DNA from: a bacterium
Lineage (GTDB): Bacteria; Patescibacteriota; Gracilibacteria; BD1-5; UBA6164
Length of the DNA stretch: 64,000 bases
Direction of reading: 5' to 3'
Assembly (NCBI GenBank): GCA_024635475.1
Contig: JAGXIW010000008.1
Coordinates: forward strand, 13,592 to 77,591
Shown: in pieces, positions 6,778-26,191 of the stretch
How the letters are laid out: each line of letters begins with the position of its first letter
How positions within the stretch are numbered: position 1 is the first letter of the stretch
The notes under the pieces: generated by a model
Seen by the model: only the letters and a program-made list of their open reading frames with translations
Databases searched by the model: none
Told to the model about the DNA's origin: nothing
Position numbers and translations under genes: made by a program

Positions 6778-7362
6778 ATGGAAAATTTTTTAAAAGAAAT
6801 TGTTAAATGAAATAAATTTGAACTTTTGATTGATAGTAATATATTTTCAAAAGAAATAGTATTAAAAGCTGCTTATAATTTTTTGGATAAAGGTTATTTT
6901 TTCTTTAAATTAGATAAAGATAATAATATAATTTTGCAGTTTACAGTAAAAGATGGAATAAAGGAATCTCCTGAAAGTATTATCTGAGATTTCTCAGATG
7001 AGATTTTATCTGTGTATTTAAGGGATAAATTAGAACATGATAATAAAGATATAAGAGAAAAAATAGTTTGAGCAGCAATTGCAAATAGTATAGATTCAAA
7101 ATGATTTACTCAATTTGATACTGATAGACAAGATAATCAGGAACAAAATCAAATAGATTTTGATAAAGATATAGATGAGATTTTGAGAGAAATAGAAAAT
7201 GATCCAGAATTAAAAATAGATGAAGAAGAAATAGAAAGAATACTTAAAGAAATAGAAGAAGAAAGTAATATGATAAATGATGATAAACCAATTATTAATT
7301 TAGATATGGATGCTATAAAAGAAGTAAAAGAAAAATTTAAGAAAGATAAAAAAAGTAACTAA
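6778..7362 (+). CDS. hxsD: HxsD-like small protein with an acidic low-complexity tail (His-Xaa-Ser system accessory protein candidate)
   Basis: 194 aa. The N-terminal ~110 aa (IFSKEIVLKAAYNFLDKGYFFFKL ... DEILSVYLRDKLE) resemble, from memory, the HxsD family (TIGRFAMs TIGR03976, LLNDYxLRE-type motif). The remainder is a D/E-rich tail. It lies immediately upstream of hxsB- and hxsA-like genes. Confidence 0.5.
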
Positions 7363-7607: not shown

Positions 7608-9143
7608 ATGTTTGATTTGGAAAAAATAAAAAAAATTAAAAGTGATAAAATATGATTTTTCAGATTCAAGAAATTTGATGAAAGTACATATCTTATTACT
7701 AATGATATAGCTAAGTATTCTTTTTTAACTAAAGAAGAATTTAATGATTTTATATCTTGAAAAATAGTTTCTTGAGTAAAATATGATGAGTTATTAGAAA
7801 GAAAATTTATAAAAGATGAAAAATATGAAACAGATATGTCTTTTGCTTATGCAAAGAAAAATAAATTTCTAGCATATTGACCATCTTTGCACATAATAAT
7901 TACAACACTTAGATGTAATCATAAATGTAAATATTGTCATGCAGCAGTAGCTCCAATGACAGCAACAGAAATGGATATGACGCAAGAGACAGCTAAAAAA
8001 GTAGTTGATACTATATTTTATACTTCATCAATAGATTTAACTATTGAATTTCAATGATGAGAATCTTTGATCAACTGGGATATTGTTAAATATATTGTAG
8101 AATATGCTGAAGTAAAATCTTTTCATTTGAGTAAAAATATAACTTTTGCTTTGGTAACTAATCTTACTTTGATGGATGATGAGAAACTGGACTATATATT
8201 GGCTCATAATATACATATTTCTACTTCTTTAGATTGAGATGAAGAGACTCATAATTATAATAGAACTTTTAAAAATGGTAATAGTTTTGAACAGGTAACT
8301 AATTGGATAAAAAAAATAAATGATAAATATGGTGAAATAGATTCTGTAAATCCTGATTTCAATTGAAAAATTATAAGAAAAGTGGGAGCATTATTAACTG
8401 TTACAAAAAAAACACTTTCAAAATATAAAGAAGTTATTGATACATATGTTTCTTTATGATTAGATTGAATATTTTTAAGACCATTAAATCCTTACTGATT
8501 TGCAGCTTCTGATATAGAAAAACTTTGATATACAAATGAAGAATTTATAGATTTTTACAAGAAATCTATGGATTATATAATTGAGTTAAATAAAAAATGA
8601 GTTGATATAAGAGAAAATTTATCAAGTATATATTTAAGTAAAATTTTAACTGATACAGATCCAAATTATCTAGATGAAAGAAGTCCTTGTGGTGCTTGTA
8701 TATGACAGGTTGCATATAATTATGATTGAAAAATATATAGTTGTGATGAATGAAGGATGTTTGCCCGTATGTGAGATGATAGTTTTTTAATGGCTGATAT
8801 TAATAATAGTGATTTTTCTGAATATCCATGACACGATACTTACAATAAGATGATAAATAGTGAAACAACAAAAACCATGGTTCAGGCAAGTACTCTAGAT
8901 TGATTGCCTTGATATAATGACAGTGTTTATAAGCCATACATCTGAGTATGTCCTATTCACTCATATAAGACTAGTGGTAATATTATTCCAAATTATTCTA
9001 AAGATTATAAAAAAATACTTGATTACGCTGTTTTGGATTATATATTTAATAAGCTTAGGGATAAAGAAATTTTGGATTATTTTAAAAAATGGATAGTTAG
9101 ACCGTGAGATGCTTCAGTTGTTAGTCAATGTGAAATTATTTAA
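7608..9143 (+). CDS. hxsB: Radical SAM/SPASM maturase, HxsB-like
   Basis: 511 aa. The N-terminal FRFKKFDESTYLITNDIAKYSFLTKEEFNDF is typical of HxsB as I recall it. rSAM motif LRCNHKCKYCHA (CxxxCxxC), IEFQGGESL, and a SPASM-type Cys cluster SPCGACIGQVAYNYDGKIYSCDEGR ... GVCPIHSY. Directly followed by the His-Gly-Ser repeat peptide gene. Confidence 0.75.
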
Positions 9144-9174: not shown

Positions 9175-9567
9175 ATGTCAGAAGATAAGAAAAAATTGTT
9201 CCCAAAAATAAAAAAGAAATTAAAATGATTTCTTACAGAAGAAAGTGGTAAAATGAGCAAGAAAGATGCTTTATGATTAGGTGTTTGAGTGATGTTATTA
9301 AGTGTGATTGATGAGGTCGGGGCAACTAATCCTACAACAAACCACAGTAATAATCATACTAAATGTAATGTTTCAATGACAGCTGGAGCGGTAGTTAATC
9401 ATGCAAGTTCAATTGTAAATTGACATTATAGTGCGACTCCTGCCGCAAATGTTACTTTTTCACATGGATCACATGGAAGTCATGGATCACATGGATCACA
9501 TGGAAGTCATGGGAGTCATGGATCACACGGGAGTCATGGATCACATGGAAGTCATGGGCAGTGGTAA
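9175..9567 (+). CDS. hxsA: His-Xaa-Ser repeat precursor-like protein (HxsA-like); C-terminus is (Ser-His-Gly)x11 followed by Gln-Trp
   Basis: 130 aa: MSEDKKKLFPKIKKKLKGFLTEESGKMSKKDALGLGVGVMLLSVIDEVGATNPTTNHSNNHTKCNVSMTAGAVVNHASSIVNGHYSATPAANVTF(SHG)11QW*. ATG 9175, TAA 9565-9567. It sits between HxsB-like and HxsC-like radical SAM genes. Confidence 0.8.
9460..9558 (+). repeat. Coding 9-bp tandem repeat (11 units) encoding Ser-His-Gly
   Basis: Units are TCA/AGT CAT/CAC GGA/GGG. Ser codons alternate between the two codon families. All 11 Gly codons are GGA (8) or GGG (3), and none is TGA. Confidence 0.95.
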
Positions 9568-9591: not shown

Positions 9592-10290
9592 ATGAAAAAA
9601 ATATATTTTTGATTGAGTCTATTTATTAACCTATCTTTAGTTATTGTACTTGTTTTTAGTTTAATAAATAATAAAAATTCAAATAATTTTTGAACTTGAA
9701 TTAATGATAAATTTAATTCTTGAAATTTAAGTAAATCTTGAATTTTAATAAAAAATGAAATAAAAAATTTTTCTAAAGAAGAATTAGAAAAAGAATGTAA
9801 AAAGATTATTGATTGAAAAAAATCAAATTTCATTGAAAAAACAGAATTATATTCTTTATATAAAGATATTAATTTAGATAATTTAAAAAATAACAATGAA
9901 TATTTAGCTTTATTGAATTTGAAAAAATTAAATTGTGAATTTTTTAATTGAAATGATTATTATAAAACTTGTAATATTTTAAAAACAAATGATATTAAAA
10001 ATATTGATAATAATATAATAAAAGATGCTTATGGTAGAACATTATTAAAATCGATGATATTAGGTTTTAATAAATGTGATGAATTATCTAGTCAAAAAGA
10101 AAAGAAAGAATGTAATATATATTTTAATAATTATATTGATTTAGAAAAATTATATACATGATCGATAATATGATCATCGTCTGTTGAAGTTTGAAGAATA
10201 TTTAATGATTTGTGAGAAAAAATTTTTTTAGAAAAATTAAATAAGGAATTTATAGAAAAATGTAATAAATTAGATTTTTCAAAAGAATAG
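9592..10290 (+). CDS. Hypothetical membrane-anchored protein (232 aa) inside the Hxs cassette
   Basis: ATG 9592, TAG 10288-10290. N-terminal TM helix (FGLSLFINLSLVIVLVFSLI) followed by an Asn/Lys-rich domain with 6 Cys. No recognisable family. Confidence 0.6.
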
Positions 10291-10361: not shown

Positions 10362-11360
10362 ATGAAAAAAAATAATTTTCCATTTGAGCATATTACATTG
10401 ATTATGACAAGAGATTGTAATTTAAAATGTGAATATTGTTCACTTAATCATACAAAAATTAATATTACTAATGAGATATTAGACATATTTTTTAGGAAAA
10501 TAATTAAATATAATAATTATAATTTAAATATTACATTATTCTGATGAGAACCATTATTAAATAAAAAATGAATCGAACATATTTATGTACTATTGAAAAA
10601 GTATATGAAAGAGTTTATCGGGAATAATATTTTTATTTATTTGAAAATTCCTTCAAATGGGACCTTATTAAATAATGATTATATAAAATTATTTAATAAG
10701 ATAAAATCTTTAAATTTTATAAATTTATCATTTAATATAAGTATTGATTGAGATAAAACAACTCAATTAAGACAAAGAAATTATGCAAAAAAAAATTTAG
10801 ATTATTATGAAATTTTAAAAGAAAATATAAAAATGTTGGTTCTGAATAATTTTGATGTTGAATTATCGACTGTATTAGCTTTTTCTAATGATAATTTTTT
10901 TGATGATATTGTTTATTTGATTAAAAAATTTAAATTACCAATTTTTCTAATGCCTATGCAATTAACATCAGGTTATATTGTTGAATGTGAAAATATAAAT
11001 AACCATATAAAAAAATATTTAATAAATATTGAAAGAACACTAAAATTAATAAAAATAAATAAATTAGATAGATTCATTATTAATTTTTCTTCTTATGTTG
11101 ATGTTGTAACTCCTTCAATTGGTCCTACAGTTGATGTAAATGGTGATATTTATACGACTAGATCATTTATGTTTTCTCTTGATAGAAGTGAAAAATTTTT
11201 TAAAATTTGAAATATAAAAAAAATGGATTTAGTTAATTATTTTATAGATAATGATATAAAAAAAATTGAATTTGAAAGTTTTAAATTATTTTATTGAAAA
11301 ACATTTTTGATCAATAAAAGTATTTGAGACTTTTTTACTAATTTAATTTATAGTAAATAA
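10362..11360 (+). CDS. hxsC: Radical SAM protein without a C-terminal Cys cluster, HxsC-like
   Basis: 332 aa. TRDCNLKCEYCS (CxxxCxxC), LFGGEPLLNK, later GPTVDVNGDIYTTRSF. No SPASM/twitch cysteines, as expected for the second rSAM of an Hxs cassette. Its stop overlaps the next start (TAATG). Confidence 0.65.
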
Positions 11361-12271
11361 TGAAGAGACTTGAATTTCATATATCATATATATGCCAACA
11401 TAAATGTATTTTTTGTAGTGAAGCAGATAGAATGGATAATTTTAAAAATTATCCATTATCTTTATTGCAAATAAAAACTATTTTGATAGATAGAATGAAA
11501 AAATGATATAATCATGTTAATTTTACTGGTTGAGAACCTACTATTACTCCATGATTTTTAGAATTACTCAAATTTACGAAAAAACTTTGATATAAAATAT
11601 ATGTTTGAACAAATTGAGTTATGTTTTATTCTGAAAAATTTGCTAAAGAATCTTTAAAATATATAGATGAACTATCTCTATCTGTTCATTGGTATTCATT
11701 AAATACATGTTGAAAACAGATTTGATTGAAATATCACTTTAATAATTTTCCTATTATTGTTAATAATATCGAAAAATATAAGGCTAATAATAATTTTTTC
11801 TTTTTAAATATAGTTATAAATAAATATAATTATTTTGATACTGAAAAGATAATAAATTTTGTTATAGAGACATGATATGATTTTAAACAAGTTTTAGTAT
11901 CAAATATTGCCCCTGAATGAAGTGCAAAACATAATTATATTGATATTGTTTTTGATTTAAATGAGTTTAGGAATTATATTCCAAATATAATAAAAAAATG
12001 TAATGATAATTGAAAAATACTTAGATTTTTTTGATTGCCTACATGTATTTTAGAAGAAGACTTTATTGAGTATTCAAATGATGAACATTGGGAAGAAAGA
12101 CACACAATAGAAAGATTTTTGAATAAAAATTGAAAAGTATCATTAATAGATATTTATTCTCCAGATAATTCAAGAGAAAGGACATTTGTAGATAAATGTA
12201 ATAATTGTAAATGGAAAAAAAATCCTTGTACTTGAATTTTTAAAAAATATTTAGATTTTTATGAATTTTAA
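11360..12271 (+). CDS. Radical SAM protein with C-terminal CxxCx6CxG auxiliary-cluster motif
   Basis: 303 aa. ISYICQHKCIFCSE, KKGYNHVNFTGGEPTI, KKLGYKIYVGTNG, and C-terminal DKCNNCKWKKNPCTG. Paralogue of the 13192-14133 gene. Confidence 0.8.
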
Positions 12272-13210
12272 ATGGAATTAATATATATATTAACTTATAA
12301 TTGCAATTTTCGTTGTAAATATTGTGATATAAATAAACATGTCAATAATATTTCAAAAAAAGTTATAGACCAAAGTTTGATATTTTTGGAGAAAAATAAT
12401 TTTAATATAGAAAAGGTAAAATTTTTTGGTTGAGAACCATTATTGAAAAAAGATTATATAAAATATATTGTGACTAATTTTCCGAAAAATGTTAAAAAAA
12501 ATTTTTATATTACTACAAATGCAACTTTAATTGAAGAAAATTTTATGTTATTTGCTAGAAATAACAATATAAAATTAACATTTAGTATTGATTGAAATAG
12601 TAAAACTATTTGAATCAATAGAATTACGAAATGATGAAAAGATTTATCAAATATTATTATAAAAAACACAAAAAAATATAATGATTTTATAAGAATAAAT
12701 CAAGTTATTACTTCAAATAATTCTAAGGATTTTTTTGCTAATTTTAAATTTATATATGATTTATGAGTTAGAAAATTTAATTTTTTACCAGAATATTATT
12801 CTGAATGGTCAAAACAGTGATTAAAAAATTTAAATAAGTGATTTAATGAAATTTTTAATTTTTATAAGGAATGAAATCAATTTGAATTAGTAAATTTAGA
12901 AAATTATTCTAATATTTCATTTTTTAATCTATGATTAATAATAGATACTGATTGAAGTATTTATTGAACTAATTTAATTTTATCTTGAGTATTTGAAAAA
13001 TATAAAAAAGACTTAATATTATGAAATATTTTTTCTGAAAATTATATTAATTTTCAAGATGATGACTTTATTAGGAGTTACATAGATAAAACTTGAAATA
13101 TTTTAGAAATAGAATATAGTAAAAATATATTAAATTCAGTAAAATACGTAGATTTAATGTTAAATAATTTTTGTAATAAAATGTACTTTTTATGGAATAT
13201 AAAAGATTAG
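12272..13210 (+). CDS. Radical SAM protein, second HxsC-like paralogue (no C-terminal Cys cluster)
   Basis: 312 aa. TYNCNFRCKYCD, FFGGEPLLKKD, GLIIDTDGSIYGTNLI (compare GPTVDVNGDIYTT in the 10362 gene). Its start is 1 nt after the previous stop, and its 3' end overlaps the next gene by 19 nt. Confidence 0.75.
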
Positions 13211-14133
13211 AAATATATGTTTGATGGACATGTAATCATAAATGTACATATTGTAAAGAATATCCAAATATGGAAATACTTTGGAATAAAAAGGTTACAA
13301 AATATGACATATTAAAGTTACTAATAAAATATAAGAAAAAATGATATAATCATGTTAGTTATCTTTGATGAGAACCATTTATTCAACCTGTGTTTTTAGA
13401 TGCATTAAAATTGTGAAAAAAACTTTGATATACTATATTGGTTACCACAAATTGTTCAACACTTCATATAGATAATCAAGCTAGTAAATTTTTACCATAT
13501 ATAGATGAGTTAATATTATCTATTGAAGCTATAGATAAAGAAAAACAGCAAATTATATCTAGAACAAAAAATTATGTCATTTGGGATAAAGTTTTTGATA
13601 ATATAAAAAAGTATTGGAATTGAAAATTGTTTAAAGCAAATATTGTTATAACTAAAGATAATTTAAAAGACCTTTTCTTAATAGTATCTTTTTGTATTAA
13701 TAATAATTTTAAGGAAATAGCAGTAACTTACCCAGATATAGATTTAGATTATTATGGAAAAAAACATATTTTAAATAAAGTTGCTCCAAAATATTCAGAT
13801 TGTGTGAATGAAATAATAAATATAGTTAATTTATGTGAAATAAATAAAGTTAATTTGAAATTACCAGATTTTCCTTTTTGTGTTTTTCCAAAAAAAGATT
13901 TAGAAAAATATATATCGTTAACTGATGATTACGATTATCAAACAAGGCTAAATATTTTTCAAAATACAATAGAATTTGATAGGTGAGATTTAAAAACAAC
14001 AGAGGAGATTCCTAGACAAAGATCTCATTTAAAATGATGTTTATGATGTATATATATTAATTTATGCTGGGGGGTATCTATATATTATAAAAAATTATAT
14101 TGACTAGATGAAATTAATCATATAACAAAATAA
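13192..14133 (+). CDS. Radical SAM protein with C-terminal CxxCx5CxG motif
   Basis: 313 aa. VGWTCNHKCTYCKE, KKGYNHVSYLGGEPFI, KKLGYTILVTTNC, and C-terminal LKGCLGCIYINLCWG. Confidence 0.8.
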
Positions 14134-14136
14134 ATT

Positions 14137-15159
14137 ATGTGAAAAAAATATAATGATTCAAAGATTTACATTAATGAAATAATTAGAATTACTTATAAAT
14201 GTAATTGGAAATGCAAGTTTTGTAATGTTTTTAAAACAAATAATTTTTGAGAAAAGGATATAACAGTTAAGGAAGTAATTTATCAAATTTTAAATTTAAC
14301 TAGGAAATATACTAAAGAGCAAAGAAAAAATCTTATACTATCATTTTCATGATGAGAGCCAACACTAGATAAAAATTTATTTACTTATATTAGATTAGCA
14401 AAAGGTATATGAATATGAATTATTCAAATTCAAACAAATTGAACCATTTTATTTAAACATAAAACTTATATAGACAATTTAATTGCAGTATGACTTGATG
14501 AAATATTTTTAGCTCAGCATTCATCAGATGTTGATATAAATAATAAATTGGGAATTTATTACAATATAAAAGATTTTATTAATTGGGTAGGGGGTATAAA
14601 AAAAAATGGAATATATAAAAAAATTTATATATGATTTAATATTGTTATTACAAAAATAAATTTATTCCAGATTTATGATTATTTAAATTTTCTATTAGAA
14701 GTAGGTTTTTTATGAATTTTACCAAAAATAGTAAATTGACAAAATCCTATTTCTTTTTGATTAGTCCAACCTAATTGATATGCAGAGATTAATAAAGAAG
14801 AAATTTTACTAAAGTACAACGATGATGAATTGAATGAAATAAATAAAATTATAGATTTTTGTAAAGAAAATAATATATATCCAGATTTCCATTTTACAGC
14901 ACCACCATTATGTATTTTAAATTATCCTGAATATAATTTAGAATATAAAAGATCATTAAATTTAGAAGAAGATGTTAAAAAATGAATAGTTAATGAATGA
15001 AATTTAGAATCATTTAAATCTTTAAGAAAAGAGAAACAAAAATTCAAAGAATGTGATAAATGTAAATATAATAATTATTGTTTATGATTTTATAAAAACT
15101 GGATTAGCTTTATTTGAGAAGACTATGTAAAAGAAAAAATTAATAATTTTATAAAATAG
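14137..15159 (+). CDS. Radical SAM protein with C-terminal CxxCx5CxG motif
   Basis: 340 aa. ITYKCNWKCKFCN, LSFSGGEPTL, IQIQTNGT, and C-terminal KECDKCKYNNYCLGF. Confidence 0.8.
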
Positions 15160-15164
15160 TATTT

Positions 15165-16520
15165 ATGATTAATATAAAACAATTATTAAATAAAATACTT
15201 ATTTCATCAGATGTTTATTTTTTTACTATCGATTATTTATTTAGAAAGATAGTAATATTTGCCTGAAAATATATTTTAGAATTTTCTTTAGTTGATAAAT
15301 GATGAAGTATAAAACAAAGTAAATATTTTTATTTCTTTTTAAGAAAAATAGATGATATAGATAATATTTATAATTTTTTAAATTCAGATAATAAAGTTAT
15401 TTCAAATAAAAATATTTGAGAAATAATAAATATCATAATTAAAAATGAGGAATTAATATATCATATATTTTATGGTGAGTGTGAAGTATTTTATGAAAAA
15501 ATATTCAATAAGATAAAAATAAATAAAAATATATTATTTATATTAAAGTGATGATGAATGGAAGAGACTATAGAGAAATCTTTTATTTCATATTGTAATA
15601 ATTCAAATATAAAATTAACTGTTTTATATAAATTTTGAACCTGATATTGGGGGCAAAAACTTAATCAAGATTGATTTTTTAATGAATTAAAAGTTAATAA
15701 TAAAAATGTTAAATTTTTATATAATGAGGATTTTAACGATGAATTTATAGATTCTATGGTTAATGAAAATACTGAGATTTTTTCTTTTCAATATGATTAT
15801 AAATGAATATATAAAGATTTTAATATGATAGTATTATCAAGTGTTACTGATAAAAATATAGATTGTTCTAGGTATAAAAATGTATTTTCTTGTTATCAAA
15901 GTAAAACTATATGATATAGTACAGATAAATTTATAAATATTGAAAATACTAAAGTTTATAAGATATTTAATCCACAAAATATAGATTTATTAAATAATTA
16001 TTCTGTAATTAAAAAGGTACCAAATTTTATTTTATCTTGATGAATGTCATGGGCAAGAGATTTTTCTATATTAAATTCTTTAGAAGGTAAATATAAATGA
16101 ATATTAGTAAGTGATGAAATTCATGAAGTAAAGAATTTTTTATCTATGTATAGATGAATTCAAAGTTATTATTGATTTTTAGGTGTTTTTAAATTATCAA
16201 GTTTTTGAGTTTTTTGTCATCTTGAAAAATTTAACGATGATGATAGAAGTAAAATGATAGCAACATCTATTTGTGCATGAAAACCTGTTATTGTTCCACA
16301 TAATGATTGATTAATTGTTAAGGAAATTATTGATAACAAATTAGGACTTGTTTATAGAAATTGAGACATAGAAGATTTACAAAAAAAAGTTATGTTTTTT
16401 GCTGAAAATAAGGATAATATAGAAGAATATTCTAAAAGATGTTTAAGTTATTCAAAAGAACAAATGGATATTAATAATTTTATAAATTTTATTTTTGATA
16501 AAGCTTTTATTGATGAATAA
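15165..16520 (+). CDS. Glycosyltransferase-like protein (GT-B / GT1-type C-terminal domain)
   Basis: 451 aa. The C-terminal ...DRSKMIATSICAGKPVIVPHNDGLIVKEIIDNKLGLVYRNGDIEDLQKKVMFFAENKDNIEEYSKRC follows the EAxAxGxPVI...G...E.I....G.L pattern of GT-B sugar transferases. The N-terminal half is unrecognised. Its stop overlaps the next start (ATGAATAA). Confidence 0.45.
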
Positions 16521-18162
16521 ATTCGAACAAATAATATTAAAAATATTAAATACAAATTTTTCTAGTTCAACTATAAAATGCACTTATTTATATAATGAGT
16601 TTTTTATAAGTATGTCCAAAACCTGAGAATTTGTTTTGCTTTGAATATCTTATAAATCATCAAAAATACAAATAAATAAATATAAATGAGAAGATACTAG
16701 AATTTGAAAAATACTTTTAATTTTGCTCAAAAAATATGAAGAGATATTTTTAAATTATTTTAAAATTAAACAAAAAACTATTTTTAATTTATGAGAAGAA
16801 TCAGAGTTTATAAATATTTTTGATAAAAAAGAATTAAATTATGAAAATATAGAAGAAAAACTGTATTTTAGTTTTTTAGATGATTATTCTTATAGAAGAA
16901 GGAGTGAAATGAGTTTTAATATAGAAGAAAAATCCATTATTGATATATACCATAGCGATTTTGAATGTTCTAAATGTGCTTGACCTAGGGAAGCATTTAC
17001 AAATTTTATTGATTATCATAATCATGAGGTATGTTTAGAAAAATCTTTTCGAGCAAGTGAAAATAATACAAAAAAAATTAATTTATATACAAATATAACA
17101 GATTATGAATCTATAACTATTTGATGAAATGCTAAGATAGATGAAATATTACAAAATATAGAATTAATAAATGAATATGATATTATTTCTATTAATAAAA
17201 CTTGTATATCGGTAATTATGTGAGATGACATAGAATCAATTCTAAAGCATAATAATATTTCTAAAGAAAAAACTATTTATACTGATCAAAATACTGATAG
17301 TTGATACAGAGTAATTATAAATTATTTAAAGACTTTAGATATTTTAAAAGTTTCTAAAAATAATGAATTAGTATTCTTTTGACTTAATAAAAATAAAAAT
17401 ACTTTTGAATTAATAAAATTTTTACAAAATAATTTTTGATTACAAGTTTGAAATGTATTATTACCAAATATAAATAAAAAAGATTTAGAAAATATTTTAA
17501 GATATAAATTAGCTGTATTTTTTATTGGTAGAGAAACAAAAACTCAAAATATATTTAAACTATATCCTATAGATAATCTTGAAATTAATGTTCCATATGG
17601 TATTTCTAAAACTTATGAGTTATATGAAAGTATACTTTTAAATTATTGATTAGAAGAAGAAAAATTAAAACTAAAGAATATTTTTAATGAATTGAGAGAA
17701 AAAAATATAGAACTTTTTAATAAATCAAAAAAATATAACATATGATTTATTATTCATGACTTTCATATAAAACAGTTTTCACAAGATAATTTCAGAGGAT
17801 GTTCTATAATATCTATGTTGAACGATATGGGATTTCATTTAAATTTTTTTATTTATCTTGCAAGTGATAAATCAAAAGAAGATATAATTGAATTCAATGC
17901 AAAAAATGATTTATACAATTTTTATACAATTATTTCAAATAAAAAAGCAGATTTAGATAAATTTATAAATGATGAAAATATACAAATCTATTATTCAGAG
18001 ATTTCAAGTGATTCAAGGATTATATCAAAAAATAAATGACAATTTTCAGTTTGAGATTTAGAGTATTGAATAGATTGATTTTATAGAAGTTTGGAATTGC
18101 TTATAAAAAAATGTGAAAAGGTTGATTATATGAATTCAAAATTAAATTATTATTTAAAATAG
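16513..18162 (+). CDS. Nitrogenase component-1-type oxidoreductase family protein (NifD/K / BchN/B-like), long subunit
   Basis: 549 aa. ...KTCISVIMGDDIESILK (the C..IGDD motif of the family), LAVFFIGRETKTQNIFKLYPIDNLEINVPYGISKTYELYESIL, and C-terminal GQFSVGDLEYGIDGFYRSLELLIKKC (the vGY.G...l pattern). About 170 aa of N-terminal extension have no match. The call is weaker than for the next gene. Confidence 0.55.
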
Positions 18163-18166
18163 TTTT

Positions 18167-19369
18167 ATGGATATAATAGAAAAATATACTCAAATTTATG
18201 GAAGTCCTTTTTTGACTTGAGTTTTTATGTGAGTTAATGCTATAAAAGATGTTGCATTATTTGTTGATGGGCCAGATTGCATATTTTATAAGGCTGATAT
18301 GTTATATAAAACTCATGATTTATGATCTAGTCTTAAACAAGCAAGTATTGATACAAAACTATATTTCTCATGAGTTATGCCAAATAAAATGGTAAGATGA
18401 TATGATGAAGATATAAAAAGAAAGTTATCTTTCATTGAAGAAAATTCAAAATTTAATCTTTGAGTTGTTACTTGTATGCCAGTTACTTGATTACTTGCTA
18501 CTCAGTATGATAATATATATGGAGATTTAAATAAAGATTTTATTTTTGTCCCATCCCATACAGATAAATTTCGGCTAGATTGATATAGTATATTTTTGAA
18601 AGAATTAGCAAAATATATAAAACTTGATGAGAAAAAAGAAAAGAAAAAATTAAATGTATCGATAATTTGATACCTTTTTGATAGGAATGAATGAGACTGT
18701 ATTTGAAATTTAGAAGAAATAAAAAGAATACTTAATCTAATCTGAGTAGAACTAAATTCTATATGGCTTAGTTGATGAGATTTAAAAGATTTATCTAATA
18801 TAGAAAACTCAGAACTTATTATTTCTTTTCCTTATGGATTCCAAGCTTCAAAAATTATATCAAGAAGACTTAATGTAGATATTTTAGAGTTAGATATTCC
18901 TTTTTGATTTGAGAATACTATAAATTTTATTGAAAAAATTTGAAAAAAATTATCTATAGATAAAATAAAAATAGATAGTGTTTTGAAAAAAGAAATTACT
19001 TTTGTAAAAGAAAAAATAGATTTACTTAATGAAAAAGTTTTTTTAAACAAAAATTATATATTTGCCTGAGATCCTTTTATGGAAAAGTCTATAAAAGATA
19101 TTTGAGATTTCTTTTGAATGAATCATATATTTACATATAATTATAATTGATCTAAAAAAGCAAAAGAAACTGATTTTGATAAAAAAAATGTAGATTTAAT
19201 TATAGGAAATTCAGAATTTAATTTGAGTTCAGAGTTTAAACTAGAGTTTTGATTTCCATCTTACAATACGCACTTTTTACTTGAGAGACCTTATATGTGA
19301 TTCAGATGATTATTATTTTTTATTGAAAGATTATATCTTGAAATGACTAAATTAGATAAATTAAATTAA
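18167..19369 (+). CDS. Nitrogenase component-1-type oxidoreductase family protein (NifD/K/E/N / BchN/B-like), short subunit
   Basis: 400 aa. GVNAIKDVALFVDGPDCIFYKADM (HGPxGC-type cluster Cys), LGVVTCMPVTGLLATQYD, VSIIGYLFDRNEGDCIGNLEEIKRIL, ELIISFPYGFQASKIISRRLNVDILELDIPFGFENT, EFGFPSYNTHFLLERPYMGFRGLLFFIERL. Confidence 0.7.
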
Positions 19370-19375
19370 AAAAAT

Positions 19376-20194
19376 ATGAAAAAAATAGTGATTTATGGTA
19401 AATGATGAATAGGTAAATCAACAACTTCAACTCATTTATCTGTGGCATTTGCTAGCAAATGATTAAGAGTTTTACAAGTATGATGTGATCCTAAACATGA
19501 CTCTTGTAAAAGAGTATTAAGTTGAGTTAGAGATATTCCTACAGTTATTGAGTTATCAAAAGATAGAGATATATATGAGTTTACAAAAGATTTAATTATT
19601 CATAAATGAAGATTTTGAATTGATTGTATAGAAGCTTGATGACCGATTGCTTGAATTGGTTGTGCTGGTAGAGGGATATCACTTATGTTTGAAATATTTG
19701 ATGAAATAGGCTTACTTGATGAATCAAATTATGATGTAGTTATATTTGATGTACTTTGAGATGTTGTTTGTTGATGATTTGCATCACCTATAAAGGTTGG
19801 TTTTGCTGACCAAGTTTATATTGTACTTTCAGAAGAAATAATGAGTTTATATGCAGCTAATAATATATCAAAAGCAATTGTGAATTATCACAAAAATTGA
19901 GTTTGATTATCTTGAATTATCTTGAATTTAAGAAGTAATGAAAGTGATGTAAAAGTAGTTGAAGATTTTTCTAAAAGTTTATGAACAGAGATAGTTTGAA
20001 TTATGAATAGATCAGATTGAATTTTGCAAGCGGAAAGAAAAAATATGACTTTATACGAATTTGATAGTAATCATATAGATTTACAAAAATATAATAAATT
20101 AGCAGATTTTATGTTAAAAAATGAGAATAAAATTATTCCTATTACTTTTACAGATAGAGAATTTGATGATTTTATTTATGATAAATTTTATTAA
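19376..20194 (+). CDS. NifH/BchL/CfbC-family ATP-dependent [4Fe-4S] reductase component
   Basis: 272 aa. KIVIYGKGGIGKSTTS (P-loop; both central Gly are TGA at 19403-19408), VGCDPKHDS (switch I), GIGCAGRGI and LGDVVCGGFA (the two cluster-ligand Cys), [17 protein letters not shown]. Confidence 0.9.
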
Positions 20195-20242: not shown

Positions 20243-20968
20243 ATGAAATATTCACCTAATATATATAAATATATTTCAGAAGATATATCAAATGCATTTC
20301 GTTATGGATTTAAAGAGTGAGAATATGAAGCAAATAAATCTCATGTTAAAATTACTGAAGATAAAAAGTTTGAGATTATTGAATTTGATGATTATTTTGA
20401 AGTAAATGGTTATTTAATAGCGAAAGAAAATTTTTGAGAACCTTGTTCTCCAAATGTTCAAAAAAATCCAGTAAATATAGATAAAGGAGCTCCACAGGCA
20501 TGGATGTATACTATAGATGATGATTCAGTATCAGGTGATGGTAAATATAGATGATTCGAATTATTTAAATATACATTTCCACGGATTAATATTTCAAAAA
20601 CCACAGCAATAAATCAAAATATATATCCAGCTAATTTTTGGGTATACAATTCTATATGAGCAATTATAGAAGGAGAATATCGTTGAGTAAGAATTCCAGA
20701 GAATTGGGAGCTTTTAAATTTAATAAATTCTATTCCTTGAAATTGTATTGAAAAAGCAAAATCTTTACAGATACCATTCATTGGATTTCGTAGTACTGAT
20801 AATAGTGGAAAAATTCATTTTCTTTGAGAATGTGCATTTCTTTTATCTTCAGATCATTTTGCAAATGCTGGTGAACGTAATTTACGTCTTTTTAGATGAG
20901 GAAATAAAGCAATTGGTGATTGGATTGACTGTGGTCGTTGAGCTTCTGTGCGTTATTTTCTAAAATAA
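20243..20968 (+). CDS. FISUMP-like (Fibrobacter succinogenes major paralogous domain-like) protein
   Basis: 241 aa. The C-terminal GVRIPENWELLNLINSIPG...IPFIGFRSTDNSGKIHFLGECAFLLSS...CGRGASVRYF matches the G.hlPs..EW..L ... G.r...G ... g.SVRC pattern of TIGR02145 as I remember it. Confidence 0.45.
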
Positions 20969-21005: not shown

Positions 21006-21974
21006 ATGAAAAAACATATAGAGATAAATATTTGAAAAGCATGTAATAATAAATGCAGATTTTGTATGAGTTCTCAATATGCAATAAAACGAGTTTGAGA
21101 AACTTTTTGATTAGTAGCTTTTAATTTAATAAAAAAAGAAATTAAAACATATGCTATTAAATGATATAAATCAATTTGATATATTTGATGAGATATTTCT
21201 ATTCATCCAAATATTTATGAAATTATAGAAAAATCAAGAAAATATTGATTTGAAAATATATCAATTATTACAAATGCTATGGTATTTTCAGATTATAATA
21301 AGGCAGAGAAATTAATTTTATCTTGAACAACTAGAATAAATATATCTATTCATTCCCATAATTGTAATATAGAAGATTATATCACTCAAATAAATTGATG
21401 ATTTGAAAAGAAACTATTAGCTATTGATAATTTTAATAAATTATATAACCATAAAGTTTTAAAAAATCCAATAAGTATAAATATAGTTTTAAATTGATTG
21501 AATTATAAAGATATAACAAAAACTTGTTTATACTTTTATAAAATTAAGAATATAAAAGATATAAGAATAAATTTTTTATGGAATAGATTTTTTTTCTCTG
21601 AAGATGATAAAAAAAAATTAGAATTAAGTTATACAGAATTTTTACCTTATTTAAAAGAATTAATAATATTTTCAATAAAAATAAACCTAAGAATAACATT
21701 TGATGCAATTCCAGCTTGTGTTTTTCATAAATTAGGATTTAAAAATCATAATTTTATAATTAGAAAATTTTTATGAGAAGAATTGGATTATATAGATGAG
21801 GTTTCTAATATAAATATGGATGTAAAATTTAATTGGAAAGAACAAAAAAGAAATGAACTAAAAACAAAATTTGATAAATGTAATGATTGTTTATATTCAA
21901 ATAAATGTCAGTGAATCTGGAAAGAATATGTTAAAAGATATTGAGAAGATGAATTTAATGCTATTTTATTTTAG
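21006..21974 (+). CDS. Radical SAM protein with C-terminal CxxCx5CxG motif (tandem paralogue A)
   Basis: 322 aa. INIGKACNNKCRFCMS, KGYKSIGYIGGDISIHPN, ITNAM, RINISIHSH, and C-terminal DKCNDCLYSNKCQGIWKEY. Confidence 0.8.
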
Positions 21975-22254: not shown

Positions 22255-23214
22255 ATGGATAATCTAAAACATATCGAAATTAATATCTGAAAAGCTTGTA
22301 ATAATAGATGTAGATTTTGTATGAGTTCAAAATCAGAACTAAGGGATATTAAATTTGTACAATTGGATGAATTAAAAAATAAAATTAAAAGTTATTCTGA
22401 AAAATGATATAAATCAATATGATTTTTATGATGAGATATATCAATTCATCCAAATATAATAGAAATAATATCTTTTTGTAAAGAAAATTGATTTGTAAAT
22501 ATAAATGTAATAACAAATTGAATGAGATTTGAAGATTTTAAATTTACAAAAAAGTTGATAAATGCTTGATTAACAAGAGTCAATTTTTCAATTCATTCTC
22601 ATCTAGATAAAATAGAGGACTATCTTATACAAGTTTCATGATGACTTCAAAAAAAATTAAAAGCAATTGATAATTTTAATATTTTCTATAAAAATTGACT
22701 ACTAAGAGATGAATTAAGTATAAATATAGTTTTAAATAGTAAAAATTATAAAACAATTGTAGAGACAGTCTTATTTTTTTATAAAATAAAAAATATAAAA
22801 GATATTAGAATAAACTTTATTTGGCTTAATAATGATACTAAAGAAAATTGGGAGGATTTAAAATTAACTTATACAGAATTTTTACCATATTTAAAACAAC
22901 TTATATATATATCACTAAAATATTATATAAGAATTACTTTTGATACTATACCAGCTTGTATTTTTTATAAAATAGATAATATAAATTACAAATCATTAAT
23001 AAAGAAATTTTTATGAGAAGATTTAGATCATATAACAGAAATCGATCATATAAATAACAATGACCAATTTAATTGGAAAGAAAGAAAAAAAGATATGTTA
23101 AAAATGCAGTTTGAACAATGTGAAAAATGTAATTATAATATTTCTTGTCAATGAGTTTGGAAAAATTATTGAAAGATATATTGATGAGATGAATTTAAGG
23201 CTGTAATTAAATAA
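22255..23214 (+). CDS. Radical SAM protein with C-terminal CxxCx5CxG motif (tandem paralogue B)
   Basis: 319 aa, collinear with the 21006 gene. INIGKACNNRCRFCMS, KGYKSIGFLGGDISIHPN, RVNFSIHSH, YKIKNIKDIRINF, LTYTEFLPYLK, and C-terminal EQCEKCNYNISCQGVWKNY. Confidence 0.8.
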
Positions 23215-23228
23215 TTTTACTAAAGAAT

Positions 23229-24857
23229 ATGATTGAGAACAAAAAAATAATAATAGATAAATATATATCAAATATAACTACTTTTGATCTTTTTTCTGAA
23301 ACATATCGTTGATGAAAAGAACAAAAATTGTATTTGCCATTATCTTATAATTATATATTTTCAAAATGGGAAGATTTTATAAAGATGAATCCTGATTGAG
23401 TTATAGATTTATATATTCATATACCTTTTTGTTTAAAATTATGCTCTTATTGTAATTATTATAAAACTTTAGTTGAAGAAAATAGTTTAGATAAATATGT
23501 GCTTGATTATTTGATTCCATATTTACAGAATATATCTATTATTTTCGAGTGATTTAAATTTAATTCTCTTTATATATGATGATGAACACCATCAATTATT
23601 GGTTTAAAATTATTAGAAAAATTATTATCTTTTATCGAAAATAATATACTATTTGTAGAGTGAGCCGAGAAAACATTTGAATGAAATCCTATTTCTCTTT
23701 CAGAAAAGAAAATAGAAATTTTATCAAAATATTGAATCAATAGGGTCAGTATGGGTGTTCAAACATTGAATAATAAAGTTTTAATTAAAACTAATAGGGA
23801 ATATCAAAATTTAGAAATAATAAAAAAAGTTATTAATAAACTTAATAATTTTTGAATATCTAATATAAATATTGACTTATTAATATGATTAGATAATAAT
23901 GAAAAGGATGATTTTATTTATTCTTTGTGAGTTTTCTCAAAATTAAATATAAGTTTAATAACTACATATTGGTTAACCCCAACTTCCAGTTACCTTTTAA
24001 AGCATTTTTCTTGAGATAAAAATATGTTTTATGCAAATTTAAATAATCAAATAAATAGTATATATGATGAATTAACCAAGATTATTTCGAAATTTAAATT
24101 TGAAAGTTATAATATAAGTAAATTATCTAATCATTGTTGGCAATTTACAATAAAAAACTGTAATACAAAAACTAGTTATACAGATATTTGAAATAATTCA
24201 ATATTATGAATATGACCTTCATCTAGATCTTATATAAATTGATCTTTGGTTTATTTGACATTAGAGTATATTCCAATAAATTTTAATATAAAATTTGTAG
24301 ATAATTTATGAAAAAAAATAAATAGTTATGATGAAATGCTTTTATATACTATAATTAATGTTAGAGACAATTGATTTATTAATACAGATTATATATATAA
24401 AAATTTTAGTTTAGATTTTAAAAATATATTTTCTCAAGAAATTGAATTTTTATTAAAATTTAATTATATAACAATTAAAGATAATAATTTTATTTTTTCT
24501 GAAAATGTTAATAAAAAGTATTATTCTATATTATTTTTATTTGATTTGATAAAATTAGATATAAAAGATTTTTTGAATTCAAAAGAAAAAAGAGGAAATT
24601 ATATAACTTTATCTAGTAATAATATAGAACTTATTTTAAATATAAAAAATGATAATGTTTTTATATTTGTAGATAAAGAAAAAATTAATATTAATAATAT
24701 TTATCGATATTACTTTGTTATACTAAATATAAAAAAAATTTATGAAAAATTTAATAAATATATATTTAGTTTATTAGACTTTTATAATATTTTGAATAAA
24801 TATTTTTCAAAAAAGAACAAAGATTTAAATGTATTTTTAAATTATACTTCTAAATAA
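23229..24857 (+). CDS. HemN/HemW-like (coproporphyrinogen III oxidase family) radical SAM protein
   Basis: 542 aa. LYIHIPFCLKLCSYCNY (CxxxCxxC with the HemN context), SLYIGGGTPS, GINRVSMGVQTLN, DLLIGL, and ILGIGPSSRSY near the HemN C-terminal domain. An unrecognised ~100 aa tail follows. Confidence 0.75.
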
Positions 24858-24922: not shown

Positions 24923-26191
24923 ATGGAAAATAAAAAAAACTTTCTTTCTAAAGAAAAAATAACTAAACAAAATCGTATTTGGGTTCGTATAGCATCTGTA
25001 TGTAATAATAGATGTATTTTTTGTCTTGATAGTTTTGCTCAAAATTGAACTTTCCCGGAAGAAAACGAAATAAAAAAACAAATAAAAGATTGATATAAGA
25101 AATGATATGATAATAGAGTAATTATCTCTTGATGAGAGGCTTCAGTAAATCCTAAATTTGCTGATTATGTAAGATACTCAAAAGAATTATGATACGATAG
25201 AGTTCAAACAGTTACAAATTGAAATATGTATGCTTCTGAAATCTTTTGTAAAAAAGTATTTGAAGCTTGATTAGAGGAAGTAACATTTTCTTTTCATTGA
25301 CACAATGAAACTTTACATGACTATTTAGTTGATACTGCAGGGGCTTTCAAAAAATCACTTAAATGACTTATATACATAAAAAAAAATTACCCCCATGTAA
25401 TTATCAATATTGATATCGTAGTTAATAAAATAAATATAAAATTCCTTCCTGATATAATTAAATTTTTTATGAAACTGTGAGTTTATGAATATGATATTTT
25501 GCAAATAATCCCTTTTGGTAGATGATTTCAGGAAAATAAAGAAAAATTATTTTATAATATTGAAGAAAATATTAAATATTTGCAAGATACTTGGAAATTA
25601 TCAAAAGTTCCAGGTATGTATATGTGGACAAATAGATTTCCATCTGAAGCCTTTGAATGATATGAAGATTTAATTCAAGACCCGAGAAAAATCAAATCAG
25701 AAGTTATGTGAGAATGAAAACATCATTTTGAGCCATTTATAGTTTCTTGATGAGAAATAAAACAAGATTGTTTCTGAATTGCATGTGAGTTTTGTTTTTT
25801 AAACCAGTATTGTAATGATTTTATAAAAAATCGAGATAAAAATAAACTTGAATCAGATAGTAGTTATGAGATAATTAGATGAGAAGAATTTCCAAGCCAA
25901 GTTTATGAAAAATATTGAGAAAAAAAAGAAGATTTTATAAAATATTTGAAAGATATTGATAAATTACTTATAAATATCCCAAAATGTTTGTGATGAACAG
26001 GAATTTATGAAAGTTATAATGATATAAGAGAAGAAAAGACATTAGAAGATTATACATATAAATATATAAATAATTTATATAGAAAAAAATCTTTGAGATG
26101 TAATAGTTGTAAATATAATAAAACTTGTGAAGGTATTCATATAAATTTTATTAGGAGTTATTGATTTAGTATTTTACAACCTGAATTATAG
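24923..26191 (+). CDS. Radical SAM protein with extra Cys-rich C-terminal region
   Basis: 422 aa. RIASVCNNRCIFCLD, VIISGGEASV, VTNGN, EVTFSFHGH, internal CFGIACEFCFLNQYC, and C-terminal LRCNSCKYNKTCEG. Confidence 0.8.

Follow-up and report, generated by a model that had tools for sequence, protein, structure and literature searches.

"Group VI" nitrogenase paralogs were defined in groundwater Elusimicrobia by Méheust et al. 2020 (ISME J / bioRxiv 10.1101/765248), who described loci with an intact NifH, very divergent NifD/K-like proteins in which some of the P-cluster cysteines are missing, and up to 13 adjacent radical-SAM genes. The same authors found homologs in two Gracilibacteria and fourteen Myxococcales genomes and predicted a tetrapyrrole substrate, while reporting that precursor pathways are absent from many of the carriers; GWA2_69_24 is among the genomes that they name. 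A July 2026 Chem Rev review (PMC13474568) repeats the tetrapyrrole proposal and presents Group VI as the sole major nitrogenase-like group in which no member has been characterised, for which genome context has been of "little help" and whose hosts have no culturing method. According to that review, Group VI proteins keep "at most four of six" P-cluster cysteines and have "no C275/H442", genomes that carry Group VI systems and no others contain no NifB homologues, and Gracilibacteria are not mentioned. Here we describe a three-gene nitrogenase-like module in a 64,000-nucleotide stretch of a Gracilibacteria genome (assembly GCA_024635475.1, contig JAGXIW010000008.1, positions 13,592 to 77,591; "the window" hereafter), where it shares one gene array with a His-Xaa-Ser (Hxs) peptide system.

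The Hxs side of the comparison also has a described relative. The HXS system of E. coli (HxsABCD) is an antiphage system in which an exported repeat protein undergoes maturation by HxsB and HxsC, both radical-SAM enzymes, acting with HxsD, and 99.7% of HXS systems have been reported from Pseudomonadota (Li et al. 2026 Nat Commun, PMC13128918). The association between Hxs genes and Group VI genes is new, being found in neither Méheust 2020, from which the word "peptide" is absent, nor the 2026 review, and our literature searches found no published report combining "nitrogenase-like", "radical SAM" and "RiPP". The module itself is a new member of a family that had already been described in 2020, Gracilibacteria included. 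Searches found no published report joining "nitrogenase-like" to Gracilibacteria, and neither nitrogenase nor radical SAM comes up in a paper on the metaproteogenomics of Gracilibacteria.

The nitrogenase-like genes and their family

The module is made up of three genes on the forward strand, listed here with their best domain matches:

16513..18162, +, predicted Group VI NflD-like subunit, 549 aa (Pfam Oxidored_nitro, 37 bits, aa 184-383)
18167..19369, +, predicted Group VI NflK-like subunit, 400 aa (Pfam Oxidored_nitro, 92 bits, full length)
19376..20194, +, predicted Group VI NflH-like Fe protein, 272 aa (Pfam Fer4_NifH, 273 bits)

A reading of this DNA made from the sequence only had called these genes a complete module of one NifH-like and two NifD/K-like proteins in a genome that uses genetic code 25, and its coordinates and quoted motifs are all confirmed. 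The H-like protein carries a P-loop (GKGGIGKS, aa 8-15), switch I (CDPKHDS, aa 37-43), Cys96 (CAGRGI) and a switch II that holds Cys132 (DVLGDVVCGGFA). The K-like protein has the motifs DGPDC (aa 34-38), FGFPSYNTHF (aa 361-370) and PYMGFRG (aa 375-381), and the D-like protein has HSDFECSKC (aa 147-155) and NKTCISVIMGDD (aa 228-239). All NCBIfam scores of the H-like protein lie under the equivalog cutoffs (nifH, 280 bits against a cutoff of 394; CfbC, 277 against 402; BchL, 213 against 345; BchX, 164 against 331), as do those of the two component-1 proteins (nifD, 22.8 against 654; nifK, 25 against 427; BchB, 41 against 490; CfbD, 21.7 against 268), which likewise miss the cutoffs for BchN, BchY and BchZ. 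The three genes at 16513-20194 very probably encode a Group VI nitrogen-fixation-like (NFL) two-component reductase.

The database relatives of the H-like protein form a tight clade at 61-84% identity that comprises Gracilibacteria metagenome-assembled genomes (MAGs) and the cultured Ca. Absconditicoccus praedator, beyond which identity is about 50% to other Gracilibacteria and 47% to an Elusimicrobiota protein. These relationships were examined in a neighbour-joining (NJ, a distance method) tree of 124 sequences, built from 120 database matches and a few annotated references (NifH of Nostoc and Sinorhizobium, BchL and BchX of a Sulfitobacter plasmid, CfbC and a Treponema NFL type). The clade of the window protein has 100% bootstrap, a larger clade that includes the Elusimicrobiota protein P0051 has 87%, and the exclusion of NifH, BchL, BchX, CfbC and the Treponema NFL type from this larger clade has 90%. 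The P0051 locus, which we call Group VI by its context and not by name, reads rSAM-rSAM-H-D(589 aa)-K(424 aa), where rSAM stands for a radical-SAM gene.

The K-like protein is the most specific marker of the family. Its family alignment, searched against 185,579 species-representative genomes, identified 79 loci whose K-like proteins are 26-33% identical to that of the window over the full length (E 1e-49 to 1e-64), with a D-like homolog near the K-like gene in 71 of them. The carriers are Elusimicrobia (including GWA2_69_24, locus L057, and GWA2_66_18, locus L024), Myxococcota/Polyangia, Bdellovibrio and Oligoflexales MAGs, Binatia, Spirochaetes, two Methanosarcinales MAGs and one Nanoarchaeota MAG. 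The family is a small one, with 147 of 1.84 billion 50%-identity clusters matching at E <= 1e-30, and the code-25 lineage occupies a deep branch of its own in the K-like tree. A long D-like protein (549-628 aa), a K-like protein of about 400-426 aa and a suite of radical-SAM genes are common to the Gracilibacteria, Absconditicoccus and Elusimicrobiota loci.

Compared with Group VI as described, the window has the same intact NifH-like protein, the same divergent D/K pair without FeMo-co (iron-molybdenum cofactor) ligands and with most P-cluster cysteines missing, the same wealth of radical-SAM genes, a NifH clade shared with Elusimicrobia and a K-like protein homologous to that of GWA2_69_24. 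It differs in the gene order (D-K-H versus H-D-K), in an extra, clade-specific cysteine (Cys155 of the D-like protein) and in sharing one array with a type-4 His-Xaa-Ser system. The sequence-only reading did not expect such a module in an organism of this kind, an expectation already overturned by Méheust 2020 with its two Gracilibacteria and their radical-SAM association, and its list of known groups (nitrogenase, DPOR/COR, CfbCD and Mar/Nfl) left out Group VI, defined in 2020, to which the module belongs. A phylogeny placing the proteins inside a characterised clade of known substrate had been named as a test; the clade turns out to have a name, and it comes without a known substrate.

The characterised relatives can be compared on the same footing. 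The dark-operative protochlorophyllide oxidoreductase (DPOR; BchLNB/ChlLNB) and chlorophyllide oxidoreductase (COR; BchXYZ), of Group V, likewise join an ATP-dependent Fe protein to a heterotetramer with a single interface [4Fe-4S]-type cluster, a cluster that is predicted for the window, and inspection of the motifs puts K-Cys38 at the first-motif position that is Asp36 in BchB and Cys in BchZ. The window proteins differ in scoring under the cutoffs of all Bch families, in lying outside the BchL/BchX reference clade, in having only two BchN-type cysteines conserved across the family, in the lack of chlorophyll-pathway genes and in an N-terminal domain on the D-like protein that BchN does not have. 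CfbCD, the Ni-sirohydrochlorin a,c-diamide reductive cyclase of Group IV-B, has in CfbC a Fe protein that shares with NifH the top profile scores among the characterised ones (CfbC, 277 bits; nifH, 280 bits), and the CfbC of Methanospirillum is about 44% identical to the window H-like protein, whereas the window has two distinct component-1 subunits in place of the single CfbD type and its H-like protein falls outside the CfbC clade. The methylthio-alkane reductase (MAR) and other Group IV NFL systems are set apart by the incomplete P-cluster-type cysteine set of the window and by the absence of a NifB-like match among the radical-SAM proteins of its cluster.

Some of the cysteines that remain are conserved across the family. 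K-Cys38 (VDGPDC) is invariant in all 81 ungapped sequences of a family-wide alignment of 87, and in the D-like protein Cys152 (H-x4-C) is invariant in 58 of 58 ungapped sequences (60 aligned) and Cys231 (NKTC-x5-GDD) in 59 of 59. Near the C-terminus of the D-like protein, Cys534 (window 18106-18120) is present in 52 of 59 family members and matches none of the six canonical P-cluster positions, while D-Cys155 is confined to the code-25 clade. Position 178 of the K-like protein (window 18692-18700, aa 176-178) follows a family-signature DRNE motif; 68 of 87 sequences have His there and those of the code-25 clade have Cys, and the residue may serve as the fourth ligand or in catalysis. For the mapping of ligands only the NifD and NifK profile alignments were usable. 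These pair D-Cys231 with the Cys of the NifD motif "ECPIGLIGDD" (alphaCys154 type) and the Cys of the NifD motif "LIHCYRS" (FeMo-co Cys275) with a D-like stretch that is free of cysteine; the equivalent of NifD His442 has no reliable alignment, and K-Cys103, at the position of NifK betaCys153, is present in the window and not conserved across the family. Profile alignments of the D-like protein with BchN and of the K-like protein with BchB were tried and set aside as too weak for this purpose (probabilities of 0.6% and 60%, with partial coverage), and for that reason D-Cys152 and K-Cys38, which we take to be the alphaCys62/betaCys70 motif (BchB Asp36), are assigned by motif inspection and not by a significant alignment.

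By this count the module keeps only three to four of the six P-cluster cysteines, and the FeMo-co cysteine is absent. The pattern (D-Cys152, D-Cys231, K-Cys38 and a Cys-free Cys275 position) agrees with what the 2026 review states for Group VI and, as far as sequence can tell, fits a DPOR/COR-like interface [4Fe-4S]-type cluster and not a P-cluster, with no FeMo-co-like site. Since the cysteines of the Fe protein are intact and three to four interface cysteines survive alignment, the module is not a degenerate, non-redox homologue, an outcome that the sequence-only reading had asked to be checked. D-Cys152, D-Cys231 and K-Cys38, with the conserved D-Cys534 and K-His/Cys178, make up a ligand set for mutagenesis and spectroscopy.

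The D-like subunit was represented by the NCBI ortholog P0122 (61% identical), whose translation is correct, in an AlphaFold2 (AF2) model built on an alignment of 28 sequences (mean pLDDT 74, pTM 0.68). The model has a confident N-terminal alpha/beta domain (aa 1-97; one helix, four strands, two helices), a linker and a component-1 fold whose Rossmann-type core is also confident. All 50 Foldseek matches listed from the PDB are nitrogenase-family proteins (NifK, NifEN, VnfDK, AnfDK, MarDK, ChlB), at E 3e-11 to 1e-8 and TM-scores of about 0.4, with no family clearly closest and the MarDK chains (9d9u, 9fmg) as generic fold matches only. The predicted D-like structure would share the three-domain Rossmann-type component-1 fold of NifEN, NifDK and MarDK, from which it differs by the low TM-score (~0.4), a sequence identity of 10-15%, the lack of the P-cluster and L-/M-cluster ligand sets and the extra N-terminal domain. 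The length of this domain is conserved across the family. The sequence-only reading was right that the extension has no recognisable match and somewhat overstated its length at about 170 aa, since about 145 residues precede the first cluster-binding motif. The domain has no Pfam match, and when it was modelled alone (single-sequence AF2, pLDDT 47) it had no Foldseek match in the PDB below E 0.028. The idea that it might be a relative of HxsD was rejected by an hhalign comparison of the family alignments (probability 0.2%).

Several other loci deserve mention here. Group VI-type K-like genes occur in archaeal MAGs (L084 and L092, Methanosarcinales; L091, Nanoarchaeota; P0203, Woesearchaeota), and the DPANN-type carriers are a second ultra-small episymbiont group with the family. 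Ca. Absconditicoccus praedator (L001; CP054059.1, 860067-880894), a co-cultured predator, has a homologous H-D-K and radical-SAM cluster and, unlike what the 2026 review states of Group VI hosts, is a carrier that can be grown, in co-culture. A separate and uncharacterised NFL module on the Treponema saccharophilum plasmid pTS1 (L013, 85464-100174) consists of a 252-aa NifH-like gene and two "nitrogenase component 1" genes flanked by genes for an ABC-transporter substrate-binding protein, permease and ATPase.

The His-Xaa-Ser link

Upstream of the nitrogenase-like genes, and on the same strand, lie three genes that pass curated NCBIfam cutoffs for His-Xaa-Ser components:

6778..7362, +, HxsD (TIGR03976, 57.7 bits, cutoff 50)
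7608..9143, +, HxsB radical SAM/SPASM maturase (TIGR03978, 491 bits, cutoff 370)
9175..9567, +, HxsA4 repeat peptide, 130 aa (NF038313, 60.9 bits, cutoff 55)

The window HxsA4 has a hydrophobic N-terminal segment and a C-terminal tail of (Ser-His-Gly)x11-Gln-Trp. Like the E. coli HXS system, the window has HxsD, HxsB and a His-Xaa-Ser repeat protein; the repeat proteins themselves are unlike, the E. coli HxsA being a 214-aa, peptidoglycan-binding protein with five repeats and the window HxsA4 a short one with about 11 perfect Ser-His-Gly repeats. The window also differs in having no canonical HxsC (101 bits against a cutoff of 268), in its gene order (D-B-A versus D-B-C-A) and in its host, which belongs to the Candidate Phyla Radiation (CPR), and the E. 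coli system has no nitrogenase-like genes.

All genes from 6778 to 27143 are on the forward strand, in an array of about 20 kb that begins with HxsD, HxsB and HxsA4. The genes between 10362 and 20194 overlap or lie no more than 6 nt apart, and the gaps that lead from HxsA4 to this block are 24 nt and then 71 nt. A scan for terminators and promoters gave counts at the level of shuffled sequence and no terminator-like site between genes. The sequence-only reading had seen that the module sits in a radical-SAM/peptide cluster, as is borne out by the eleven radical-SAM genes and HxsA4 of the array; it had noticed the neighbouring peptide system without recognising it as His-Xaa-Ser, which is the most informative part of the context.

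The link recurs elsewhere. At five of the 79 Group VI loci (L032, L045, L048, L062 and L087) the K-like gene has a full-length HxsB (349 bits or more) no further than 10 kb away, and three of these (L032, L045 and L048) have (Ser-His-Gly)n peptides that pass the HxsA4 cutoff. In L032 the genes form an interleaved, same-strand array, HxsD-HxsB-HxsA4-rSAM-H-D-K-rSAMs, and a second such array, rSAM-H-D-K-rSAM-HxsD-HxsB-HxsA4, is found in L151. With L151 there are six loci besides the window in which Hxs and Group VI genes are adjacent, and they fall on five or more distinct branches of the K-like tree. The window HxsB is 36-43% identical to the HxsB proteins of these six loci, and near-identical repeat tails ending in Trp or Tyr are found in L032, L045, L048 and L151; the L045 peptide also has an RRDFL motif resembling a twin-arginine translocation (Tat) signal. 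On a cautious estimate, if each genome, of at least 2 Mb, is taken to have one randomly placed HxsB, then over 79 loci and a distance of 10 kb the expected number of adjacent cases is at most about 0.8, against the five observed (Poisson P ~1e-3). The adjacency of Hxs and Group VI genes is non-random, and it is recurrent but facultative.

The link was also approached from the other side, by scanning metagenomes with an HxsB alignment, which gave at least 80 loci (L093-L172), nearly all of them with (Ser-His-Gly)n peptides. Systems of the HxsA4 type, with long (Ser-His-Gly/Ser/Ala)n peptides, have a wide distribution: in these loci they occur on contigs of 24-74% G+C, code-25 contigs included, which is a far wider spread than the 99.7% in Pseudomonadota reported for HXS. 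Two stand-alone Hxs loci that use code 25, L095 and L097, contain orthologs of the window HxsD at 40% identity.

The radical-SAM genes of the cluster have HxsC or HxsC4 as their best NCBIfam matches, far under the cutoffs; the best in the window are the gene at 26199 (HxsC, 100.9 bits, cutoff 267.9) and the gene at 24923 (HxsC4, 126.9 bits, cutoff 500). Because the Hxs block contains no better candidate than the 26199 gene, the best HxsC candidates of the window are those downstream of the nitrogenase-like genes. Among the matches listed, stand-alone HxsA4 loci have radical-SAM genes of the 26199 type in 8 of 38 cases and of the 24923 type in 5 of 38, at about 40% identity. The recurrent link to HxsD, HxsB and HxsA4 makes the substrate question of Group VI accessible to experiment.

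Proposed mechanism, substrate and rival explanations

In the mechanism that we propose, the NifH-like homodimer would bridge a [4Fe-4S] cluster through Cys96 and Cys132, as the conserved residues and the known behaviour of the family suggest, and MgATP hydrolysis at the P-loop and switch I/II would push low-potential electrons into a D-like/K-like heterotetramer. This heterotetramer would hold a simple interface [4Fe-4S]-type cluster ligated by D-Cys152, D-Cys231 and K-Cys38, to which D-Cys155 may add the fourth ligand in the code-25 clade; the proposed enzyme would have no P-cluster and no FeMo-co. It would supply one reductive step in a pathway otherwise made up of radical-SAM enzymes. In the window, the target would be the radical-SAM-modified (Ser-His-Gly)n tail of HxsA4 or a product derived from that tail, and the step might, for example, be one that reduces a His-derived heterocycle that is unsaturated or cross-linked, in analogy to the way in which DPOR, COR and CfbCD reduce C=C bonds.

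We tentatively favour an Hxs-type peptide or protein maturation pathway as the source of the substrate, with the HxsA4 tail as the target in the window locus. A more doubtful extension is that Group VI reductases, or at least the Hxs-linked subset of them, are peptide-modifying enzymes that work with HxsB and HxsC-like maturases on HxsA4. Several observations weigh against the peptide proposal. Hxs genes are missing within 10 kb at more than 90% of the 79 Group VI loci, and the closest relatives of the window locus, with orthologs of D, K, H and the core radical-SAM genes at 48-86% identity (L006, L008, L009 and L010), have no Hxs gene or repeat peptide in their 10-kb flanks; repeat-type precursor peptides were sought in the Hxs-less Gracilibacteria clusters and none was found. 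Among the matches listed, K- and H-like genes occur in only one (L151) of the 38 HxsB loci of at least 9 kb, and nif-like genes are absent from L095 and L097, the closest HxsB loci that use code 25. The accessory genes of the relatives (carbamoyltransferase, U32, methyltransferase and PPDK_N) would suit a small-molecule pathway too, the region of the P0122 model that includes the first Cys motif and the cluster-binding region (aa 92-200) is of low confidence, and all characterised NFL enzymes use small molecules (PMC13474568). If the extension is true, Group VI would provide the first nitrogenase-family enzyme to act on a ribosomally made peptide, the product could be an effector that is exported, or else a cofactor or metallophore that is derived from the peptide by cutting of the repeats, and the tetrapyrrole proposal for Group VI would be wrong.

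The same pattern of presence and absence can be read as that of independent neighbours, an explanation that we consider possible though on balance unlikely. Group VI and the core radical-SAM enzymes would then act on a non-peptide small molecule (of cofactor, lipid or nucleoside type) and the Hxs block would be separate, with Hxs, for instance as an antiphage system, landing nearby by an island effect or borrowing the HxsC-like radical-SAM enzymes. This would account for core genes that are kept where Hxs is missing, as in the closest relatives and at more than 90% of Group VI loci, and for Hxs loci that are mostly stand-alone among the matches listed; HXS works as an autonomous antiphage system in E. 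coli, the relatives have tailoring-type genes (carbamoyltransferase, methyltransferase, U32), and next to the window cluster lie genes for a coupling protein of conjugation type and for a TraG/VirB4-like ATPase. What it leaves unexplained is an HxsB adjacency far above chance, the interleaved one-strand arrays of L032 and L151 and the tight gene spacing in the window, and the nif-like genes have no match to a defence system in PADLOC. The published hypothesis, in which a tetrapyrrole ring would be reduced for the making or remodelling of a cofactor (a tetrapyrrole scavenged from the host in the case of a CPR episymbiont), was proposed by Méheust 2020 and taken up again in the 2026 review, and seems to us improbable for this locus. 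Among the references, BchL lies nearest in the NJ topology, the cluster contains a HemN-family radical-SAM gene, and several of its radical-SAM proteins have weak matches of AhbD, NirJ or AhbC type. Absconditicoccus, moreover, preys on a phototroph. Yet the BchL sister relationship has a bootstrap of only 24%, the AhbD/NirJ similarity is generic, at SPASM/twitch level and far under the cutoffs, and the HemN-like protein lacks HemN_C, scores below cutoff and has homologs near just 6 of the 79 Group VI loci; the sequence-only reading, which had correctly picked out this gene, took it to keep a tetrapyrrole-type substrate formally possible, and the gene lends such a substrate weak support. Class C radical-SAM enzymes of the HemN family also have peptides and other molecules that are not tetrapyrroles among their substrates. 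Nothing for the biosynthesis or transport of tetrapyrroles, and no chelatase, was found among the window proteins scanned or read, and Méheust 2020 itself reports missing precursor pathways in many carriers.

Two further explanations take the nitrogenase resemblance more literally. The D/K pair could be a scaffold and not a reductase, serving, as NifEN does, as the assembly site of a novel metallocluster that is built by the NifH-like ATPase and by radical-SAM enzymes with a part like that of NifB, and with the His-rich HxsA4 as metal carrier. NifEN chains are among the top Foldseek matches and radical-SAM genes are many, and the (Ser-His-Gly)n tail is reminiscent of metallochaperones with their His-rich tails. 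We regard this as very improbable: neither a NifB-type domain nor a target enzyme is present in the cluster, Foldseek has no preference for NifEN over NifDK, VnfDK, MarDK or ChlB (TM ~0.4), HxsA4 has an export-type N-terminal segment, and genomes with Group VI only have no NifB homologues (PMC13474568). The last reading, that of a genuine but unusual N2-fixing nitrogenase, finds support in nothing beyond the resemblance to the family and an intact Fe protein and is effectively refuted, in line with the sequence-only reading, because the component-1 pair keeps just three to four of six P-cluster cysteines and lacks the FeMo-co cysteine; in addition, the window has no NifB or NifEN, every nitrogenase equivalog cutoff is missed by a wide margin and the H-like protein falls outside the NifH reference clade.

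The radical-SAM suite, the genetic code and the remaining genes

The other genes of the array, all on the forward strand, are as follows:

9592..10290, +, 232-aa protein with an N-terminal hydrophobic segment; no Pfam/NCBIfam family, no homolog in related loci, window-specific
10362-11360, 11360-12271, 12272-13210, +, three radical SAM genes; weak best matches PapB, HxsC and HxsB, all sub-cutoff
13192-14133, 14137-15159 (HxsC4-like), +, two core radical SAM genes; best NCBIfam matches viperin-like and HxsC4, sub-cutoff
15165..16520, +, conserved 451-aa protein directly upstream of the D-like gene; weak Glycos_transf_1 C-terminal match, E 0.0035
20243..20968, +, 241-aa protein between the H-like gene and the next radical SAM gene; no family match, found in the window and L007 only
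21006-21974, 22255-23214, +, two paralogous radical SAM genes, HxsC4-like, 56% identical to each other
23229..24857, +, HemN/HemW-like radical SAM protein, 542 aa; NCBIfam HemW 130 bits (cutoff 205)
24923-26191 (HxsC4-like), 26199-27143 (best HxsC match of the window), +, two core radical SAM genes

The total of eleven radical-SAM genes in the array at 6778-27143 includes HxsB and the HemN-like gene. D, K and H are likewise found amid 7-10 radical-SAM genes in L006, L008, L009, L010, L001 and the distant Gracilibacteria locus L002. Orthology on code-25 open reading frames (ORFs) defines a conserved core that consists of the radical-SAM genes at 13192 and 14137, the 451-aa gene at 15165, D, K, H and the radical-SAM genes at 24923 and 26199. 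The first two of these radical-SAM genes are 52-67% identical to orthologs at the same positions in L006, L008, L009 and L010, the last two are 55-75% identical to their Gracilibacteria orthologs, and the 451-aa protein is 69% identical in L008 and 53% in L010 and absent from the non-CPR Group VI loci. The three genes at 10362-13210 have weak, paralog-level matches only in the Gracilibacteria relatives, and their start and stop codons overlap or abut those of the conserved genes downstream.

Outside the core, the HemN-like gene and radical-SAM genes of the 21006/22255 type are often present in the Gracilibacteria-type relatives, which add to them a carbamoyltransferase, a protein of the U32 family, a methyltransferase or a PPDK_N protein. 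Homologs of the 21006/22255 type lie near 45-46 of the 79 Group VI loci, and those of the HemN-like protein, which has the Pfam domain Radical_SAM only and is under all HemN and HemW cutoffs, are also found in 5 of 38 stand-alone Hxs loci among the matches listed. NCBIfam scans found no NifB, NifEN or target enzyme in the window or cluster, and no NifB-like match among the radical-SAM proteins; a PADLOC scan of the cluster gave generic radical-SAM/viperin similarity only. The radical-SAM protein at 22255-23214 is 72% identical to that of L002 8878-9999, while H, K and D of the same pair of loci are 52%, 37% and 26% identical, an excess that suggests gene exchange or strongly uneven constraint. 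Apart from L007, none of the other related loci has a homolog of the protein at 20243-20968, and the slot that it occupies is filled by unrelated ORFs of similar size in L006 and L001.

The window has a G+C content of about 20-25% and depends on a reassigned UGA. Under table 11 it yields 42 ORFs of at least 100 aa, the longest of 205 aa, and with UGA read as sense it yields 114, the longest of 1069 aa. Table-11 ORF calling, under which the genes shatter, was dropped in favour of a code-25 caller (UGA = Gly), which gives 62 densely packed genes with 836 in-frame UGA codons. In the three nitrogenase-like genes such codons sit on invariant glycines of the NifH family (GK[GG]IGKS, V[G]CDPKHDS and VVC[GG]FA), and at the UGA columns of the window the standard-code homologs have Gly as 82% of residues for H and 59% for K, with Trp outside the six commonest residues in both; the genetic code is therefore 25. 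A tRNA(UCA) was sought as an independent marker of the code, and the window contains no tRNA gene of any kind.

The reassignment has consequences for annotation. Public protein collections render code-25 genes of the CPR with UGA as Trp (P0121, P0151 and most of P0002-P0030), and P0121 and P0151 are the public copies of the window D and K, identical save for Trp at the UGA codons, with 19 and 23 errors respectively. P0121 has no Pfam domain on record because of this Gly-to-Trp mistranslation, and translation of this sort hides Group VI genes of the CPR from domain searches.

An ATP synthase operon and the remaining genes of the window were identified by reading the translations. Three further features stand out downstream of the cluster:

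28104-30539, +, TraD/VirD4-like coupling-protein homolog, just downstream of the cluster
32735-34636, -, TraG/VirB4-like P-loop ATPase, just downstream of the cluster
39234-40085, 40168-41019, -, EamA-family transporter genes

The first two of these may belong to a conjugative/type-IV apparatus or to a mobile island, and the two EamA-family genes are tandem duplicates with 88% protein identity.

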